From positions 1 through 44,364 of the forward strand of contig CAYLXO010000004.1 in assembly GCA_964387965.1 (NCBI GenBank): 44,364 nucleotides of DNA. Reading direction: 5' to 3'. Every line of letters begins with the position of its first letter. Positions within the stretch are counted from its first letter, which is position 1. Below, one piece after another: positions 4,922 through 31,683 of the stretch. The position numbers were made by a program, and so were the translations under genes. The notes under the pieces were generated by a model. The model was given only the letters and a program-made list of their open reading frames with translations, was not told where the DNA came from and made no database searches. The stretch is from an uncultured Candidatus Saccharibacteria bacterium (lineage in GTDB: Bacteria > Patescibacteriota > Minisyncoccia > Phycocordibacterales > UBA9973).

Positions 4922-7900
4922 TTATTGCTTCTGTACTGATCCAAGAACTGGCTTGCCATCAACATAGAGTGATGAAATTGTGTCAGCTTGGTCACCGTTC
5001 TGAGTAGCATCGTATCCAAGGTTAGCCTCAGTTACTGAGAACTTAAGGTCACCAAGTGATGCAACTGACAATGAGTATGAATCACCCGCTGCTACGCTTC
5101 CAACTGTTGAAAGTGTAACTGTAAGGTAACGGTATGATCCACCATTGATTGTGATTGTTGAAGCAAGTGAACCAAAGGCGAATGTATCAGAGCCTGATGT
5201 TTCAAGTGTGTTTGCTGTGTAGTCGTTTGAGTTTTCACTTGAAGCATATACTCGATATCGTTCATCTGTACCTGTGTGGCTTCCAGTGTCAGTGAATGTA
5301 GCGTGTGTCAAAGTAATCTGTGCTGAACCATTGTTCATTACTTTGAAGCGTCCAAGTGTAGTTCCTGCTCCCATTGAAGTGAGGTTTGTAGAACCATTAG
5401 TTGGAGTTTCACCTGTTACTACAACTGAGAATGGATTGATGTTAAGGTGTGCGCCTGAGTTTCCAGCTGTTCCACTATCATAAGTAGGAGCTGTAGCTGT
5501 TGTAACACCCTTAGCAATCACGTCTGTTCCGTCGTTAGTAACTGACATGTAGAAGTCATTTCCAAGCTTAGCAACGTTCTCACCCTGAATGTCTGCCTTT
5601 ACGAACACAGTCACTGGAGTTCCAGGATTGATGCTCATAGGGAGGAAGTTATCAGCTGATGTCCATGTGTATGAACATACGTTTGAAGAACATGTTGAGA
5701 ACTGGCTCGCTGTAGCAAAAGCTGTAGTTGTGCTCAAGAGAGCTCCTGATCCAGTCTGTGCGTAAAGACGAATGTTCTTGATGTTGTTCTGAACGAGAGC
5801 AGTACCTGTAGCCTTAAGCTTGAAAGTAGTGATCTTCTGTCCTTCGTAGAGTGAGTTGAACTTAGCTGCGAGGTAGATACCATCAGTAGCATTGATTGAA
5901 ACAACTGCTGCAGTGTTTGGAGTAAATCCAGCACCAGAGAGTGTAGCAATGTTGAGGTTTCCACCTGTTGTAGCTGTCATTGTCTGACCTGTTCCAGATA
6001 CTGAAGCAGTAACTGTGTTACCAGTGTCCTTTCCAGAAGCTGTTGTGTTTCCAGATGCAATCTTGAATGTGTGTGAAGTACCAGTTGAAGCCAAGAGATC
6101 TCCGAAGAGGTGAATCTTAGTTGTAGCTGTCTTTGACACTACGATTGCATTTGTGAATGTGAACGCAACTGTGTTTGCGTTTGTTGATGTTGAAGATGTT
6201 GTTGTAAGAACATTTCCAGCATCATCCTTCATAACGAGGTTTGACAAACCTGAGTAGTCAGAACCTGATCCAAGAGTATCTGTAACTGTAACTGCTGTTA
6301 CGCGTACATCTTCTCCTGAACCTGTTGCGTTAAATTCGAAATCAGCAAGAGCAACACCGTTTGTTCCAGGAACGATTGAAGTTGCAACTGGAGTTGAAAG
6401 TGTTGTTGTTGTGAGAGTAGCAGCCTGTACAGCACGTGTAAATCCATCCTGAACAGCTACTGATGGGTCCATGATGTCGTTAGTCAAGAGACGCTTAACT
6501 GAAGTGATGTCGAAATCATTTACAAAGTATGCGTCTGAAGAGTTAGCTGAAGAGCTTACTGAAGCAACAACTTCAACAACAGAAGAAACTCCTGCCTTCA
6601 AAATTGGGTAGCTTGAGAGTGAGCGAGCTGAAGATGTACCGTTAACTGGGAAGTTTGTTGTGTTAGCTGCAGCGCTGAATACTGTTGCGCCATCAACCTT
6701 TACGTAAACTGTACCAGTCAAAGCGTGTGAGCCTGTATCCTGATCAAGACCAAATGAGAATCCACGGAGTTCCATGTCTTCACCAACTGGCTTAGCAGTG
6801 TACTTAGCAAGAACTACATCAGTAGCACCTGGAACAACTGAAGTTGAAGATGAATCTGTAGCGCGGCTGAATACCAAGCTTCCTGATCCAACTGTTACTT
6901 TGTTGTATACAGATGTTGTATCACCGATTGGGAATGATGTATCTGTTGATCCTGCTGTAGCAAGGATGCTTACATTTGTCATTGCTCCTACAACTGTAAG
7001 GTCGTAGTCGTTGTAAACAACAAACTGGATTGTGCGTGATGCACCAGCAACGAGCTTAGCGCGAACTGTGAAGTCCTTTGTCTGGCCCTTACCGATTGTG
7101 TATCCAGGGTTGATTGCAAATGTTACATACTGACCCATTGGCTGAGCAGTAGCAACAACTGTTCCTGTCTGATCTACGAGCTGAACATCAGCGTAGTCAG
7201 TTGGAGCTGCATTACCATTGTTGTAAAGCTTAACTCCTGTGAGCATAACTGCTTCGTTTGAAGTAGTTTCTGCAACACTGAACTTAGCAATTTCCTGCTG
7301 GCTTGTAGCATCAGCATTGAGAGTTACTCCAGAAGCATTAACTGGCTTTTCATCAAGAGTTACTGCTCCGAGCGATGAAGAAGATTCTACCCACATAGTG
7401 TTACCCATGAGTGGGAATGTTCCAGATACTGTTCCTGTTGAGAGCATGATATCTCCAGCTGCTGCAATCTTCATTCCGAAGCTTACACCTGCTGATGATG
7501 AGAGGTTAACCTTGATTGAAAGAGTAACCTTTGAGTTAGCTGGAACAGTGATTGGATCTGCTGAGAGTCCAAGAGTTGCCTGTCCATCTGCTCCAAGAGT
7601 AGTAACAACGTTACCATGGCGCATGCCATTTCCGTCTACTACTGATACTCCAGTAACGTATGTGTTTCCGAGGTTACCGTATTTTGTAACCTTAACAGAA
7701 GTAACGTTAACTGCAGCTGATGTGCCGTTAGCAACATCAAACTTAAGAACAGTGCTATTTGCGCTACCTGCTGTAAGAGTTACGCTTGCTGGGTTGTCTG
7801 TTGAGAGTCCAGCTGTAACTGCTCCAGTAGTAACTGTAGTACCACCAGTTGTTGTAGTTGTACCACCTGCGTTAAGAGCAGCACGTGTGAGAGCTCCAAC

Positions 7901-8911: not shown

Positions 8912-9754
8912 TTAAAGGTATTCGATAGATTCAGTATAGGTACTCCAACGCTTCTCCCCCTGCTTCTTAAGTACACCTTCCTTAACTAACGACAAAAGTT
9001 CACGCTGTACAGTCTTTTCACCCACACCAGGAAGAGCAAGTAATACATCTTTAATAGTTGCTCTTCCTTTATTTCGGACAATAGAAAGGATGTCATCACG
9101 GCGCATGTTTTTTGCTAGCTGATCAGCGCGCTTGAATGTCCGATGACTCTGACTGTTAGAAACAGTTTCTCTATCAGACTTTGTATAAAGGACATTACTG
9201 AAACTCGATTGTCCTTTATCCAAAATGCTTTTCTTGTAAGGGTTTTCTAAAAGACTTACATTGTTAGTACCGACATCAAACATTTCACTTTTAAGGACAA
9301 CATTTCGATAGCCTGGATGAGTCACTGTGTGTGTGCGTGGTGCTCCATACAATACATCGATTTCGTTACGGACCTTTTCTATCTCTGAAGTGATAATGCG
9401 AGCATTCATTTCAGAAATAATTCCGATAGTTGATGCGAGTTTGATAAGGACCAAAATATGCTCAGCCCCAGCACGTAAATCTTCAATCACTGTATAGCTT
9501 GGCTCGGTTGAAGTGTGTCCTATTTTTCGTGTCCATTTTATGAGCTCCAAAGACAAGGACCGGAGCTCGTGTCTCATTGGTTCAGACTCAGAAACAAAGT
9601 CCGTTACCATATAAATTGCTGTAGATATCTTTTCAGACTTTTTAACTATTACGGACATCGAATTATGCTTATGATTAAAGCTTTTTGTGAGTTCTTCGAC
9701 ATGTTCCTGTCCGTGAGAATTTGTATTGGACTTATTGAAATTTGATGTTTCCAT
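8912..9754 (-). CDS. Hypothetical protein with a C-terminal winged-helix DNA-binding domain
   Basis: The 280-aa ORF has an ATG start. The C-terminus is RRDDILSIVRNKGRATIKDVLLALPGVGEKTVQRELLSLVKEGVLKKQGEKRWSTY (DeoR/wHTH-like). The N-terminal helical domain is unassigned. Confidence 0.6.
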   Translation of the reverse strand: METSNFNKSNTNSHGQEHVEELTKSFNHKHNSMSVIVKKSEKISTAIYMVTDFVSESEPMRHELRSLSLELIKWTRKIGHTSTEPSYTVIEDLRAGAEHILVLIKLASTIGIISEMNARIITSEIEKVRNEIDVLYGAPRTHTVTHPGYRNVVLKSEMFDVGTNNVSLLENPYKKSILDKGQSSFSNVLYTKSDRETVSNSQSHRTFKRADQLAKNMRRDDILSIVRNKGRATIKDVLLALPGVGEKTVQRELLSLVKEGVLKKQGEKRWSTYTESIEYL

Positions 9755-27090: not shown

Positions 27091-27716
27091 GCACTCATTG
27101 TACCAAAGAATCGGTATATTTCCGCCTCAAGTTCGGGCACTGTATCAACAACAGCAAACGGTTCAGCTTTTTCAAACTCTTCGCGGGTGTGAAGCCCCCA
27201 GGTGACACCTATAGAACGCACGCCACACTCATTCCCTTCTCTCATGTCGCCAAGTGTATCGGTAATGAATATTGTTTCGCTTGGCTGTAAACCATATTGT
27301 GTAAGTAATTGATTTATTTTTATTGTTTTTCTTGCATGAGTATCACTGCCGAGGATTTCCTCAAATCTATCTCGAATATTTTCTTCTTCGAGAGATTCAA
27401 TAATATGTCGCGAATGAGATGATGAAACTATAGCGAGCCTAAAATCTTTAGACAGATCAAGCACAAGCTTTCGTATGACATCGTGAGTAGTGAGTTTTTT
27501 GAGACCATCTTTGTACAACTCTTCCCAATCGGTACGAAGGACATATCCATCGTGTGTAACTGCATGATGTAGTCCATCGTAAAAATTCCCAGACGACATC
27601 TTTTTTAGATACTCGTCAGATAAATGCGGATTTGTGCTTCGCATAATACCAAGAACTAAATCCGTAGTATTAACGAGCACTCCATCAAAATCAAAAATTA
27701 CGAGTTTTTTAAACAT
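27087..27716 (-). CDS. HAD-superfamily phosphatase (phosphoglycolate phosphatase/PGMB-like subfamily)
   Basis: Motif I is VIFDFDGVLVNT, motif II is AIVSSS, and motif IV is FITDTLGDM. Its start overlaps the ileS stop by 1 nt. Confidence 0.85.
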   Translation of the reverse strand: MFKKLVIFDFDGVLVNTTDLVLGIMRSTNPHLSDEYLKKMSSGNFYDGLHHAVTHDGYVLRTDWEELYKDGLKKLTTHDVIRKLVLDLSKDFRLAIVSSSHSRHIIESLEEENIRDRFEEILGSDTHARKTIKINQLLTQYGLQPSETIFITDTLGDMREGNECGVRSIGVTWGLHTREEFEKAEPFAVVDTVPELEAEIYRFFGTMSA

Positions 27717-30700
27717 TATTTTGTGATTACAATTGTATCACCCTTATACACAATCTCTTTTGCAAGTACCGTCTTTTTGAGGTCAGCTTCGTTATCTGCC
27801 ACCAATGCTTTTACACGTTCAGGGAGTGTAAGAGATATGACATCACTCGGAGTAAGATTTTCTTTCTTGCGTGTATCTTGAATTTCTCGCACAAGTTCGC
27901 GGTAATCCCCTTCTTTTTTAAGCTCAGGTGTGATTTCAGTAGCAAGCACAAAATCTGTACTGAGTGCCGTATCAGCAACAAGCTCTTTAATGTTTAATTC
28001 ATCTTTTATAATTTCAGTATACGCAAGACTTAAGTCGTACGCTTTCACTCGTAATTCTTTAAGTGGCTGTCGAACAGCAATGTTAGCTTTTTGTCGTGCT
28101 TGCAATCCAAGAGTGACAATCGTACGCGCAGTGCGAGTATTTTCCAATACAAGTGCGTTCACTTCTCCTGCCTCAGGCCAATTTGCAAGGTGTACACTCT
28201 CGCTGTCGTTTTCGTGGCGCAATTTTTGCCATATTTCTTCCGCGATAAATGGTGCAAACGGTGCGATGATAAGCGCGGTTGTTTTTAGTACAAAGTAGAG
28301 TGTACCTTTTGCTTCATTATCACCGTCTTTGATTCGGTCTCGTGATCTGCGTACGTACCATGTCGAAAGGTCATCAACAAAGAGATCAAATGGACGTGTC
28401 GCTTCTGTCATATCGTATGCATCCATTCCCTTTGTAACATCGCGGATAGTTTCGTATAAGCGCGCGATGATCCATTCATCGAGTACATTACCACTACGAA
28501 GTTCATATTTTGTAGTCTCTGCATCCATATCACGATACAACTCGTAAAACGCTGTAACGTTAGACAATCGTCCGACAATTTTCGAAGCGATTTCTGCAAC
28601 TGTGCGCTCAGAGAAATTTGCATCTTCTCCTTTCATGAGCGGACTTGCCATAAGATACAATCGGAGTGGATCAACGCCGTATTTATCAAAAAGAATCCAT
28701 GGATCTGGAAAATTATTTTTTGATTTCGACATTTTTTGTCCGTCTTCTGCAAGTAGTGTTCCTGTTGTCACCACATTTTTAAACGGCGCGCCTCCAAAGA
28801 GCACTGTTGATACAGCATGAGTATAGTAGAACCAGGTGCGAGTCTGAGCGATATATTCGGCGACAAAGCCAGCTGGGAAATTGTTGCACTGCCAGTCTTT
28901 ACCGTCACAAATCTCTCCCGGAGCATATGCAAATGGATAATGATCTTGCGCAAACGGCATCGAGCCTGATTCAAACCAGCAGTCAATAACCTCGGGAATA
29001 CGCTGGTATTCTTCACCTTGCTCATCTACGAGCACAATCTCATCAATGTACGGACGGTGTAGATCTATTTCATAGTGAGCATTATGTGGAAATGGGACAA
29101 ATGGAAGTGGGCGAATTTCTGCATTTACAAAGTCAGAGTATTCATCGTTAATTTCAGAAAGATTTTCATATCGCAATCCGTTTGTTACAAAGTTTACAGC
29201 GCGAGCCACACCCATATGTGCCACGATAAGCACTTTCTTCCCTAAGTATTTTGACTCGATATCAAATAAGAATTCTCCAACGCGTTTTACTAGTTGTGAA
29301 AAATTTTCTCCATCTTTAAATTCATGAAACGGATCTGTCGCATATTTCAAATCGTAGTAATGACGGAATTCATCTTTTGTAACTCCATCAAAGCTTGAAT
29401 CAATCTCCCATTCACGAATTCGATCATCGTAGACAACATTGTCTATTGGAAACCCGATTGTGTCACAAACTATTTGTGTTGTTTCTTTTACACGAAGTAT
29501 TGGCGATGCGATAACTACATCAACTTTTTCTGTAAAGCGCTGTGCACTTTCAAGCACTTGCGCTTTACCTTGTTCTGTAAGATGTGCACTATGATGCAAT
29601 TCCTGATTGTGCGTCGAGCCCAAATTATTTTCTGCTTGCCCGTGGCGCATAATAAAGTACGTATTGCCTGACTTTTTTGTCTTTGCTTTCAAATCTGCAA
29701 CCGATTGCACAAAAAGATACTTACCATTTTTTGATTTCCAAAACGGAAGTGGGCTTGCCCAATAACGATTGCGTGAAATATTCCAGTCAGGAGCATTCTC
29801 GACTGTGTGTTCGAATCTTCCTTCCTTAAGGTGCGCCGGAATCCAATTCATTGCCTGAGCTTTATCAAGCAATTCTTTTTTTACTTTTTGAATATTGATA
29901 AACCAACTTGGGAGCGCATAGTAAAAGAGTGGCGTCTCGCAACGATAACAGTGTGGGTATGAGTGAGTAATCTTTTCTTTTTTAAAGAGTGCTCCACTTG
30001 CCTGCAAGTACTTCAAGATTTCAATATCTGCCTTCATGTGGCCGTCTTTTTCAGTAGACTTTGGCTTGATAAGCATACCTGCAAAATCTGTAACCTCAGG
30101 TGCAAACTTTCCTTCTGGAGTGACGTGCACAATAAATGGGATATTTTCTTTTTGAGCAAGTACCGCGTCATCTTCACCGAACGCAGGTGCTTCATGAGCA
30201 ATACCAGTACCATCAGTAGTCGTCACAAAATCTCCATGAACAACTGTCCATGATTTTGGGTTTCTAAGCAACGCCTCCCCTTTTGTGTAGTACGGAAACG
30301 GAGGTGTATATTTTTTGCCAAGCAATTTTTCTCCTTTAAATTCTTCGACGATTTCGTACTGCTTGTCTTTAAAAACAGCTTCTGCTCTTTCTTTGGCTAC
30401 GACATAGAACTTGTCCTCGATTTTTGCTTTTACATATGTCGCCTCTTTATGAACAGCAAGTACAATATCCCCTGGAAGCGACCATGGGGTTGTCGTCCAC
30501 GCGATAAGAACAGTATTAGGATCTTCAACGAGTGGCATATTCACGTACACAGAAATATCCGAAATATCCTTGTACGAATTATCCATCGCGATTTCAGATT
30601 TTGCGATTGGTGTCTCACAACGAGGACAGTATGCAAGCACACGGACTCCTTCATACAAAAGCCCTTTGTCATTCATTTGGTTGAGAGCCCACCACACACT

Positions 30701-31162
30701 CTCGATAAATGTGTTGTCCATTGTTTTGTATGAGCCGTCAAAATCTACCCAGCGTCCGATACGTTCCACTGTCTTTTTCCAATCATGCACATATGTAAGC
30801 ACTTTACTTCGCGCATATTCGACAAACTTATCCACGCCAAGCGCTTCAATTTCGTTGTGACCAGAAACTTTCAAATCTTTTTCAACGATATTTTCAATCG
30901 GTAAGCCGTGACAATCCCACCCCCATCGTCGAGGAACGCTATATCCTTGCATCGTTTGGTAACGACCAATAACATCCTTTGCCGTTGAACCAAGAATGTG
31001 CCCGTAGTGTGGAAGCCCTGTTGCAAACGGTGGTCCATCATAAAAAACATAGTTCCCTTTTGGAGATTCTTTTCGAAGTGATTTATGGAACGTGTCATTT
31101 TCCTTCCAAAATTGGAGGATTTTCTCTTCTCGTTCTGCGTGTTGTGATTTTTTGTTTTCCAT
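27716..31162 (-). CDS. ileS: Isoleucyl-tRNA synthetase (eukaryote-like type 2) carrying an internal ~200-aa histidine-phosphatase-family insertion
   Basis: Seen are HIGH = PHYGHILG, the editing-domain block TTTPWSLPG, DWNISRNRYW, VIDCWFESGSMPF and KMSKSKNNF. The insertion spans residues ~499-698 and contains RHG (see findings). Confidence 0.93.
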   Translation of the reverse strand: MENKKSQHAEREEKILQFWKENDTFHKSLRKESPKGNYVFYDGPPFATGLPHYGHILGSTAKDVIGRYQTMQGYSVPRRWGWDCHGLPIENIVEKDLKVSGHNEIEALGVDKFVEYARSKVLTYVHDWKKTVERIGRWVDFDGSYKTMDNTFIESVWWALNQMNDKGLLYEGVRVLAYCPRCETPIAKSEIAMDNSYKDISDISVYVNMPLVEDPNTVLIAWTTTPWSLPGDIVLAVHKEATYVKAKIEDKFYVVAKERAEAVFKDKQYEIVEEFKGEKLLGKKYTPPFPYYTKGEALLRNPKSWTVVHGDFVTTTDGTGIAHEAPAFGEDDAVLAQKENIPFIVHVTPEGKFAPEVTDFAGMLIKPKSTEKDGHMKADIEILKYLQASGALFKKEKITHSYPHCYRCETPLFYYALPSWFINIQKVKKELLDKAQAMNWIPAHLKEGRFEHTVENAPDWNISRNRYWASPLPFWKSKNGKYLFVQSVADLKAKTKKSGNTYFIMRHGQAENNLGSTHNQELHHSAHLTEQGKAQVLESAQRFTEKVDVVIASPILRVKETTQIVCDTIGFPIDNVVYDDRIREWEIDSSFDGVTKDEFRHYYDLKYATDPFHEFKDGENFSQLVKRVGEFLFDIESKYLGKKVLIVAHMGVARAVNFVTNGLRYENLSEINDEYSDFVNAEIRPLPFVPFPHNAHYEIDLHRPYIDEIVLVDEQGEEYQRIPEVIDCWFESGSMPFAQDHYPFAYAPGEICDGKDWQCNNFPAGFVAEYIAQTRTWFYYTHAVSTVLFGGAPFKNVVTTGTLLAEDGQKMSKSKNNFPDPWILFDKYGVDPLRLYLMASPLMKGEDANFSERTVAEIASKIVGRLSNVTAFYELYRDMDAETTKYELRSGNVLDEWIIARLYETIRDVTKGMDAYDMTEATRPFDLFVDDLSTWYVRRSRDRIKDGDNEAKGTLYFVLKTTALIIAPFAPFIAEEIWQKLRHENDSESVHLANWPEAGEVNALVLENTRTARTIVTLGLQARQKANIAVRQPLKELRVKAYDLSLAYTEIIKDELNIKELVADTALSTDFVLATEITPELKKEGDYRELVREIQDTRKKENLTPSDVISLTLPERVKALVADNEADLKKTVLAKEIVYKGDTIVITK

Positions 31163-31166
31163 ACTG

Positions 31167-31427
31167 TTATGTAATAAATGCTGTTAGTACTGTGATAATT
31201 CCGAGGAGCACACCAGGGACATTTGCCCAAAATACAAACTTTTCCTTTTTCATATACCCATAGATAGACCAGATAATGCAGTTGAGTGTCGTGACGGCGG
31301 GCATAATATAAATATGGCTTTCTCCAGCAAGATTGTCTTTTGCTATTTCTATGAGTGACACAAACATTAGTATGGCAAGAGTTGCCCCAGCTGTGCCAAA
31401 CATATTTATAATTTTTTCTTTGGTCAT
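31167..31427 (-). CDS. SemiSWEET-like (MtN3/PQ-loop family) 3-TM membrane transporter, 86 aa
   Basis: The protein is MTKEKIINMFGTAGATLAILMFVSLIEIAKDNLAGESHIYIMPAVTTLNCIIWSIYGYMKKEKFVFWANVPGVLLGIITVLTAFIT. It has three helices, and the W..YG and AN spacing matches bacterial SemiSWEETs. The ORF track's TTG start at 31457 lies inside the T-box terminator and is rejected. The stop is 4 nt before the ileS ATG. Confidence 0.6.
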   Translation of the reverse strand: MTKEKIINMFGTAGATLAILMFVSLIEIAKDNLAGESHIYIMPAVTTLNCIIWSIYGYMKKEKFVFWANVPGVLLGIITVLTAFIT

Positions 31428-31433
31428 ATAAGT

Positions 31434-31480
31434 AAAAAACTCGTCCTTAAAAAACAATACAATTGTTTTTTAAGGACGAG
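31434..31480 (-). terminator. T-box expression-platform terminator
   Basis: It reads CUCGUCCUUAAAAAACAAU-ugu-AUUGUUUUUUAAGGACGAG followed by UUUUUU. The 5' arm shares CUCGUCCUU with the antiterminator. Confidence 0.9.
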
Positions 31481-31640
31481 TTTCCTCGTGGTACCACCTT
31501 AATTCCCCCTTTCGGGCTTCTTCTCTGCTGTAACGGGCTCTCCCGCTTGGGTCTACTTGCTCATGTATCAGATGAACGTTCTTCCAAGAGCTTATCTGCC
31601 TTCGGCAAACTTGAGGGTTGATATCCCCTAAAACTTGTAC
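31434..31640 (-). promoter_or_regulatory. T-box riboswitch leader (Ile specifier AUC candidate)
   Basis: The minus RNA contains the T-box sequence AAUUAAGGUGGUACCACGAGG. The canonical antiterminator is AAGG-[UGGUACC bulge, 31490-31496]-ACGAG-GAAA-CUCGU-CCUU. Also present are the F-box CCGUUA (31531-36), Stem III CCC-GAAA-GGG (31507-16), and a mutually exclusive 19-bp terminator. AUC-A lies in a hairpin loop at 31619-31622. Confidence 0.88.
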
Positions 31641-31683
31641 TCATACAGTAGCACAAGATACACACATTTCAAACAAACGCGTA

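Follow-up and report, generated by a model that had tools for sequence, protein, structure and literature searches.

The window analysed here is the whole stretch of 44,364 nt, which belongs to a genome of about 0.70 Mb (34 contigs, 92% complete). On its minus strand, dut and argS precede a gene for a SemiSWEET protein, which is followed by ileS and, downstream of ileS on the same strand, by a HAD hydrolase gene. The 256-nt spacer from argS to the SemiSWEET gene houses a complete T-box leader, delimited to 31637-31434 of the minus strand by reading of the sequence and by covariance models; the genes and the elements of the leader are collected in Table 1. All the elements listed in a preliminary description of this DNA are present on the minus strand and had been placed within one base. 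Two details of that description are to be amended: the small hairpin exists but had been given one base short, as 31615-31629, its true span being 31629-31614, and the terminator does compete with the antiterminator and does end in U6 but comprises 20-22 bp, not 19 bp. The antiterminator consists of the helices AAGG/CCUU and ACGAG/CUCGU, and its 3' half is reused by the terminator (overlap 31483-31472); the two structures are mutually exclusive. The IleRS encoded behind the leader has a histidine-phosphatase (His_Phos_1) domain inserted in its catalytic core (residues 503-668, 29069-29668 on the minus strand).

Table 1. Genes and leader elements of the dut-ileS region of the window. R1 and R2 are the lineage covariance models described in the text.
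Feature	Position	Strand	Basis or remark
dut	33834-33412	-	gene order upstream of argS
argS	33390-31684	-	stop TAA at 31686-31684
Candidate -35 hexamer, TTGAAA	31667-31672	-	putative, read from the sequence; 16 nt from the -10 box
Candidate extended -10 box, TGcTACTGT	31645-31653	-	putative; spacing shared with relatives
Stem I basal helix, 5' strand AAGU	31633-31636	-	R2 alignment; pairs with AGCU at 31592-31589
Specifier hairpin, AGGG-GAUAUCAA-CCCU	31614-31629	-	R2 alignment; compensatory changes in relatives
Specifier AUC; conserved purine A	31622-31620; 31619	-	R2 aligns AUC with the AUC of the model
P1b, extra hairpin GUUUGCC-GAA-GGCAGAU	31594-31610	-	minimum-free-energy fold; modelled in R2
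Stem I basal helix, 3' strand AGCU	31589-31592	-	R2 alignment
Stem II	31546-31588	-	RF00230 and R1 alignments; lower helix CUUGG/CCAAG
Stem II S-turn, GAA and AGUA	31581-31579; 31557-31554	-	RF00230 and R1 alignments
Stem II upper helix GUUCAU/AUGAGC; apical loop CUGAUAC	loop 31571-31565	-	RF00230 and R1 alignments
Stem IIA, CGGG-AGAG-CCCG	31531-31545	-	RF00230 and R1 alignments
F-box, CCCGUUA	31537-31531	-	within the Stem IIA region; RF00230 and R1
Stem III, CCC-GAAA-GGG	31507-31516	-	purine runs on either side; sequence and RF00230
T-box sequence and antiterminator, AAGG[UGGUACC]ACGAG-GAAA-CUCGU-CCUU	31472-31500	-	RF00230 and R1
Antiterminator bulge, UGGUACC	31496-31490	-	UGGU at 31496-31493
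Intrinsic terminator, 20-22 bp	31434-31483	-	hairpin 31483-31437, then U6 31439-31434
SemiSWEET gene	31167-31427	-	86 aa, Pfam MtN3_slv; first gene behind the leader; ATG 6 nt past the U-run
ileS	27716-31162	-	1148 aa; start 4 nt past the SemiSWEET stop; His_Phos_1 insertion

Covariance models and spread of the element

Searched at the curated Rfam thresholds, the window yields 23S rRNA only and no T-box. At relaxed thresholds the T-box model RF00230, whose use the preliminary description had proposed, matches the core of the leader at 31605-31469 with 39.6 bits and E 3.4e-7 (800-nt search), a score that misses the gathering cut-off of 93 bits. The alignment to the model is good over Stem II (S-turn GAA/AGUA), over Stem IIA and its F-box, and over Stem III and the T-box sequence, but model positions 11-101, which make up Stem I, are deleted. 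Our lineage model of the whole leader, R1, built from 24 relatives with the window excluded, scores 87.6 bits (E 5e-21) in its sole match in the 44 kb and likewise skips Stem I. The earlier claim of a T-box is borne out by these two matches, the first of which is below cut-off. Both models skip Stem I because the hairpin P1b is inserted there and the GA motifs of a kink-turn (K-turn) are missing as well; the placement of Stem I therefore rests on sequence homology and on a further model, R2, which describes a three-way-junction Stem I and was built from 12 relatives, again without the window. R2 finds one match in the 44-kb window (31637-31579, 32.6 bits, E 1.7e-6), in which AUC coincides with the AUC of the model, P1b with its P1b, and AAGU/AGCU with its basal helix. 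Judged from its sequence, the leader is a genuine Ile T-box that combines an ultrashort Stem I with an intrinsic terminator.

The element is widespread among relatives of the organism. RF00230 gives one to three sub-cut-off matches in each of 79 of the 101 genomes of its family, mostly about 110-180 nt long, and the cut-off is reached in none of the 101, the best score being 75.2 bits; the 30 best RF00230 loci of the family all lie upstream of ileS. The element is also present at 49 of 80 further ileS loci from named genomes. Across the phylum, T-boxes were found in 55 of 151 sampled genomes, and five of the 151 have canonical long T-boxes above the Rfam cut-off, which coexist with short ones. 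T-boxes had been called poorly documented in this lineage. Our search found no relevant paper on a T-box in Patescibacteria, the candidate phyla radiation (CPR) or Saccharibacteria, although Sherwood 2015 may mention a few terminator-linked short forms; the elements themselves are common there. For the comparisons below we pooled 80 distinct ileS leaders from relatives (Ca. Nomurabacteria / Paceibacteria / Parcubacteria, that is, metagenome-assembled genomes of Patescibacteria/CPR).

The window's own genome (G000) has a second T-box, on contig C21 at 5689-5870 (locus L002, 1501-1682), in front of an aspS gene that encodes a bacterial-type enzyme of 462 aa without the usual insertion domain. 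Stem I of this leader reads CCUGUGAUCCG-CUGACAA-CGGGGAGG with the codon GAC, its bulge is UGGC, and Stem II and Stem IIA/B seem to be absent.

Competing helices ahead of the SemiSWEET gene

The terminator hairpin of the window folds with -27.6 kcal/mol (z = -9.4; 0/200 shuffles fold as well), whereas the antiterminator folded alone is weak, at about -6 to -7 kcal/mol; with a terminator so much stronger than its competitor, a default-off arrangement is expected. The same platform recurs in 79 of the 80 related ileS leaders: the terminator hairpins, with medians of 19 bp and -25 kcal/mol, lead directly into a stretch with five or more U in 8 nt, and the 5' strand of the terminator is the 3' strand of the antiterminator, again in 79/80; the one exceptional leader has the same hairpin with a gap of 3 nt before its U-run. 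On sequence evidence only, the proposal that the expression platform is a terminator is supported both by these relatives and by the fold in the window, and transcription attenuation is the best-supported mechanism for the leader.

The same hairpin might act mainly, or additionally, on translation: after read-through it would re-form 9 nt upstream of the SemiSWEET AUG and block ribosome loading, in the manner of the sequestrator of actinobacterial ileS T-boxes. The AUG lies just 6 nt past the U-run, the start codons of relatives likewise follow the hairpin at about 10-25 nt, and AAGGA occurs in the hairpin's 3' strand; moreover, T-boxes with an ultrashort Stem I and a specifier in its apical loop are the translational ones of the literature (PMC7583486). 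However, the start codon is outside the hairpin, a pure sequestrator would need no U-run directly after it as is found in 79/80 leaders, and the AAGGA is dictated by complementarity to the conserved GUCCUU and is 16 nt away from the AUG. Within 20 nt of the start no Shine-Dalgarno motif is recognisable for most genes of the window (ileS, argS, the HAD hydrolase gene and neighbours); none precedes the SemiSWEET or the ileS start, and an exact search of the assembly did not find the anti-Shine-Dalgarno sequence of 16S rRNA. Since the genes of the window mostly lack such a motif, Shine-Dalgarno sequestration of the actinobacterial type is unlikely, and we regard translational control in any form as improbable.

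Stem I, the specifier and the tRNA contacts

The consensus Stem I of the relatives, AAGC-NNU-GA-NGRGG-[NN AUC A]-CCYCN-GA-GCU, consists of a K-turn, a helix of 4-5 bp and a hexaloop that ends in AUC and a purine. Its pairing is supported by covariation: in a 24-sequence alignment from which the window was excluded, compensatory changes occur in 4/4 pairs of the specifier helix and in 5/5 pairs of lower Stem II, 96% of the cells are paired, and the observed score is reached by 0/500 shuffles and lies far above slid controls. A second alignment, fitted to a model and comprising 49 leaders, agrees with this. The pairs of the basal helix AAGC/GCUU of the relatives covary too, and this helix is homologous to AAGU/AGCU of the window. 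For the Stem IIB pseudoknot, inspection by eye revealed no convincing covariation. Seven of the 80 related leaders have an additional distal helix in the Stem I loop, on the 5' side of AUC.

Most relatives keep the K-turn (AAGC-NNU-GA...GA-GCU). Stem I of the window spans 31636-31589, reads AAGU-UUUA...CAAG and has P1b in place of the GA motif; P1b has a competitor in an alternative extended hairpin of 12 bp (31637-31606), which contains one mismatch and two G-U pairs. The loss of the GA motif might have impaired this Stem I. Taken further, the leader could be a decaying or constitutive relic, in which loss of the K-turn together with P1b has disabled tRNA decoding and left the terminator as a fixed attenuator; the window does lack the UGA...GA motif that most relatives keep, and R1 cannot align its Stem I. 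Against such decay, the departures are shared by other leaders. A hairpin at the P1b site is present in about 15 of the 80 relatives, in several genera (among them loci L025, L049, L050, L101, L113, L114, L118, L119, L133, L136, L138, L139, L146 and L147), and the K-turn-less form AAGU-xAUUA recurs in L138 and L147. L063 also is without the GA motif (GUUA-GCGG...CCGC-AAGC), and the loop AUAUCAA is identical in the window, in L063 and in L092, the closest relative by IleRS identity (88%). Some P1b-bearing relatives have replaced the K-turn by a regular helix (UGAAGGGG/CCCCUUCG), and because these UUCG variants manage with a regular helix, the K-turn appears to be dispensable in the lineage. The AUC-A loop, the S-turn, the F-box, UGGU and the antiterminator are all intact in the window. 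Finally, ileS is an essential gene, and placed behind a terminator of -27.6 kcal/mol it needs a mechanism of read-through. We therefore consider a relic very unlikely.

The specifier proposed in the preliminary description, AUC followed by A in the loop of the small hairpin, agrees with the R2 alignment and with the relatives: in 80/80 distinct ileS leaders the Stem I loop ends, on its 3' side, with AUC plus A or G (77 detected by script, three by eye). The tRNA contacts agree as well. The tRNA-Ile(GAU) of the window's genome, encoded on contig C5 at 9575-9647, has the discriminator A73, and UGGU is complementary to its 3' end, as had been claimed. In the aspS leaders of the same genome and of the family the loop reads CU-GAC-A and the bulge UGGC, the latter pairing with tRNA-Asp(GUC) of the window's genome and its discriminator G73. 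That both tRNA contacts change with the synthetase that is regulated speaks for the loop triplet as the specifier, and this is the strongest comparative argument that we have. In other parts of the phylum, leaders of this design have GUC upstream of valS-like genes, and either AAC or GAC upstream of AspRS-like genes.

Several further observations concern these tRNAs and loops. A tRNA-Ile gene with the anticodon UAU is located on contig C27 at 1180-1254, besides that of tRNA-Ile(GAU). Two loci from other Patescibacteria, L057 and L068, have AAC (Asn), not GAC, in the specifier loop before their AspRS-like genes, and these T-boxes may sense tRNA-Asn on behalf of a non-discriminating AspRS. No tRNA-Asn is among the 34 tRNAs detected in the window's 92%-complete assembly. 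The apical loop of Stem II, CUGAUAC (region 31559-31577), matches the anticodon loop CUGAUAA of tRNA-Ile(GAU) in six of seven bases and is complementary to the specifier loop (UGAUA/UAUCA). Among the 80 leaders such complementarity is confined to one small clade (G000, G086, G062) and L012, and as this is not beyond chance, we rejected a kissing of the two loops.

The leader begins close to argS: 61 nt were counted from the argS stop to the specifier, in line with the approximately 60 nt first estimated. A hexamer TAnnnT precedes the first Stem I pair by 5-11 nt in 75 of the 80 relatives, most often by 9 nt (38/80), the distance also found in the window, and TTGCAA occupies the -35 position in relatives. 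The generic promoter scan did not call a promoter for the leader. Transcription most likely starts at about 31638, 1-3 nt before Stem I and about 46 nt past the argS stop, judging from these conserved spacings. With the candidate -10 box, conserved in most relatives, only 8-9 nt before Stem I, the transcript would start too late to include a long Stem I, and neither covariance model found one with an AG bay and distal loop; the original statement that a canonical Stem I has no room here is upheld. That the specifier lies elsewhere, or that a long Stem I reaches into argS, is hardly credible: several Ile codons do occupy single-stranded positions and both RF00230 and R1 leave Stem I unassigned, but only the apical-loop AUC recurs in all 80 leaders, with GAC in its place in aspS leaders, the structure-aware R2 puts the specifier at 31622-31620, exactly where it was first proposed, and the conserved -10 box would remove the RNA that a long Stem I needs. 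Two other candidate codons were rejected individually, namely AUA-A in GAUAAG beside P1b (31595-31592), which is unconserved and reads CAAGCU or CAGGCU in relatives, and AUC/AUA in or beside the apical loop of Stem II (31573-31565), as the apices of Stem II vary in relatives.

Proposed mechanism and relation to known T-boxes

We propose that an operon of the SemiSWEET gene and ileS is controlled by an Ile T-box through transcription attenuation, a reading in which we have high confidence; a tRNA-dependent attenuator function of the leader is very likely. The transcript would start at a promoter fitted tightly into the short stretch that separates the argS stop from Stem I. A basal helix of 3-4 bp would carry the 4-bp hairpin that exposes AUC and A in its apical loop, where AUC would pair with the GAU anticodon of tRNA-Ile. 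The S-turn of Stem II, together with Stem IIA/B, may then dock on the codon-anticodon helix, as they do in the solved actinobacterial ileS T-boxes; without a distal platform for the tRNA elbow, binding would have to be reinforced by Stem II and Stem IIA/B. If the bound tRNA-Ile is uncharged, its 3' ACCA would pair with UGGU and steady the weak antiterminator, allowing read-through by RNA polymerase. With charged tRNA, or with none, the 20-22 bp terminator with its U6 would form and transcription would stop at about 31434-31440. The Stem IIA/F-box pattern was unmatched in 45 of the 80 related ileS leaders, and as more than half of the relatives thus appear to be without Stem IIA/B, the actinobacterial docking model may not transfer fully. 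Stem III, too, is absent from several related leaders (for example in the set L024, L026, L043 and L092, in which parts are missing).

The first gene under the Ile T-box is the SemiSWEET gene, not ileS, and the tightly packed genes behind ileS are probably controlled by the leader as well. A SemiSWEET gene occurs in only three of the 101 family genomes (G000, G031 and G025; the loci of the two relatives are L023 and L170), and in all three it is directly behind the terminator of an Ile T-box and before ileS. The IleRS proteins of the other two genomes are 67% and 41% identical to that of the window. This recurrent place behind an Ile T-box despite divergent IleRS points to an isoleucine-linked role of the SemiSWEET protein.

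The closest known systems are the ultrashort ileS T-boxes of Actinobacteria such as Mycobacterium and Nocardia (Sherwood, Grundy & Henkin 2015; structures 6UFG and 6UFM; as cited in PMC7583486), which we compare with our leader by description and not by sequence. Both have a very short Stem I whose apical loop exposes AUC and a purine, both are without an AG bay/distal-loop platform, and both possess an S-turn in Stem II, a Stem IIA and F-box, and a UGGU bulge for the uncharged 3' end; in both cases ileS is the regulated gene. Unlike them, the leader of the window has a terminator with U6 instead of a Shine-Dalgarno sequestrator, a Parcubacteria/CPR host and a three-way-junction Stem I with an extra hairpin, and in its lineage the design also serves Asp, Val and Asn codons and is in many relatives devoid of Stem IIA/B. 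The leader also resembles the class I transcriptional T-boxes (RF00230; Bacillus tyrS and ileS): its antiterminator and terminator exclude each other, it contains the T-box sequence AAGGUGGUACC, an F-box and a Stem III set between purines, its Stem II has an S-turn, a purine follows the specifier, and the proposed attenuation acts on an aminoacyl-tRNA synthetase gene. In contrast to that class, its Stem I has about 30-55 nt rather than about 90 nt, the specifier is in the apical loop rather than in an internal loop, and both the elbow-binding double T-loop platform and the K-turn are lacking. The glyQS T-box resembles it in being naturally reduced and still terminator-based, but reduced in the reverse manner: in glyQS it is Stem II and Stem IIA/B that are missing, while the long Stem I and its elbow platform are retained.

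According to the literature, a transcriptional T-box generally cannot do without a long Stem I and its elbow-binding double T-loop motif, whereas T-boxes with an intermediate or ultrashort Stem I are translational, mostly from actinobacterial ileS, and depend on Stem II as essential for tRNA binding (PMC7583486). The rule given in reviews is that a long Stem I binds tRNA fast enough to beat RNA polymerase, and that an ultrashort one is tolerated only under translational control, where time is not limiting (PMC7583486; PMC7778990). In the transcriptional T-boxes that have been studied, function suffers significantly from mutations that disable the elbow platform (PMC7583486), which is a point against fast co-transcriptional capture of tRNA by the leader of the window. 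If leaders of this kind work in the way that their sequences imply, the case made for a long Stem I on kinetic grounds needs to be revised; alternatively, slow-growing bacteria with small genomes may solve the timing otherwise, for example by polymerase pausing or by a larger share of Stem II in binding.

A lineage-wide class of short-Stem-I T-boxes with terminators is apparently new to the searchable literature. We would tentatively go further, giving it a little less than an even chance, and see in these leaders a phylum-wide class of Patescibacteria that terminates transcription, reads the tRNA through an apical-loop codon and Stem II, and covers at least Ile, Asp, Val and Asn codons. Were this true, a tRNA-elbow platform would be no requirement for co-transcriptional tRNA sensing, and the SemiSWEET protein would be a candidate isoleucine-related transporter. 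For genome annotation, the scores mean that an Rfam-based pipeline misses nearly all such elements (0/101 family genomes at the cut-off). Few regulatory systems are recognisable in the CPR; T-box control is among them and can be used there for assigning functions to genes, as in the case of SemiSWEET.
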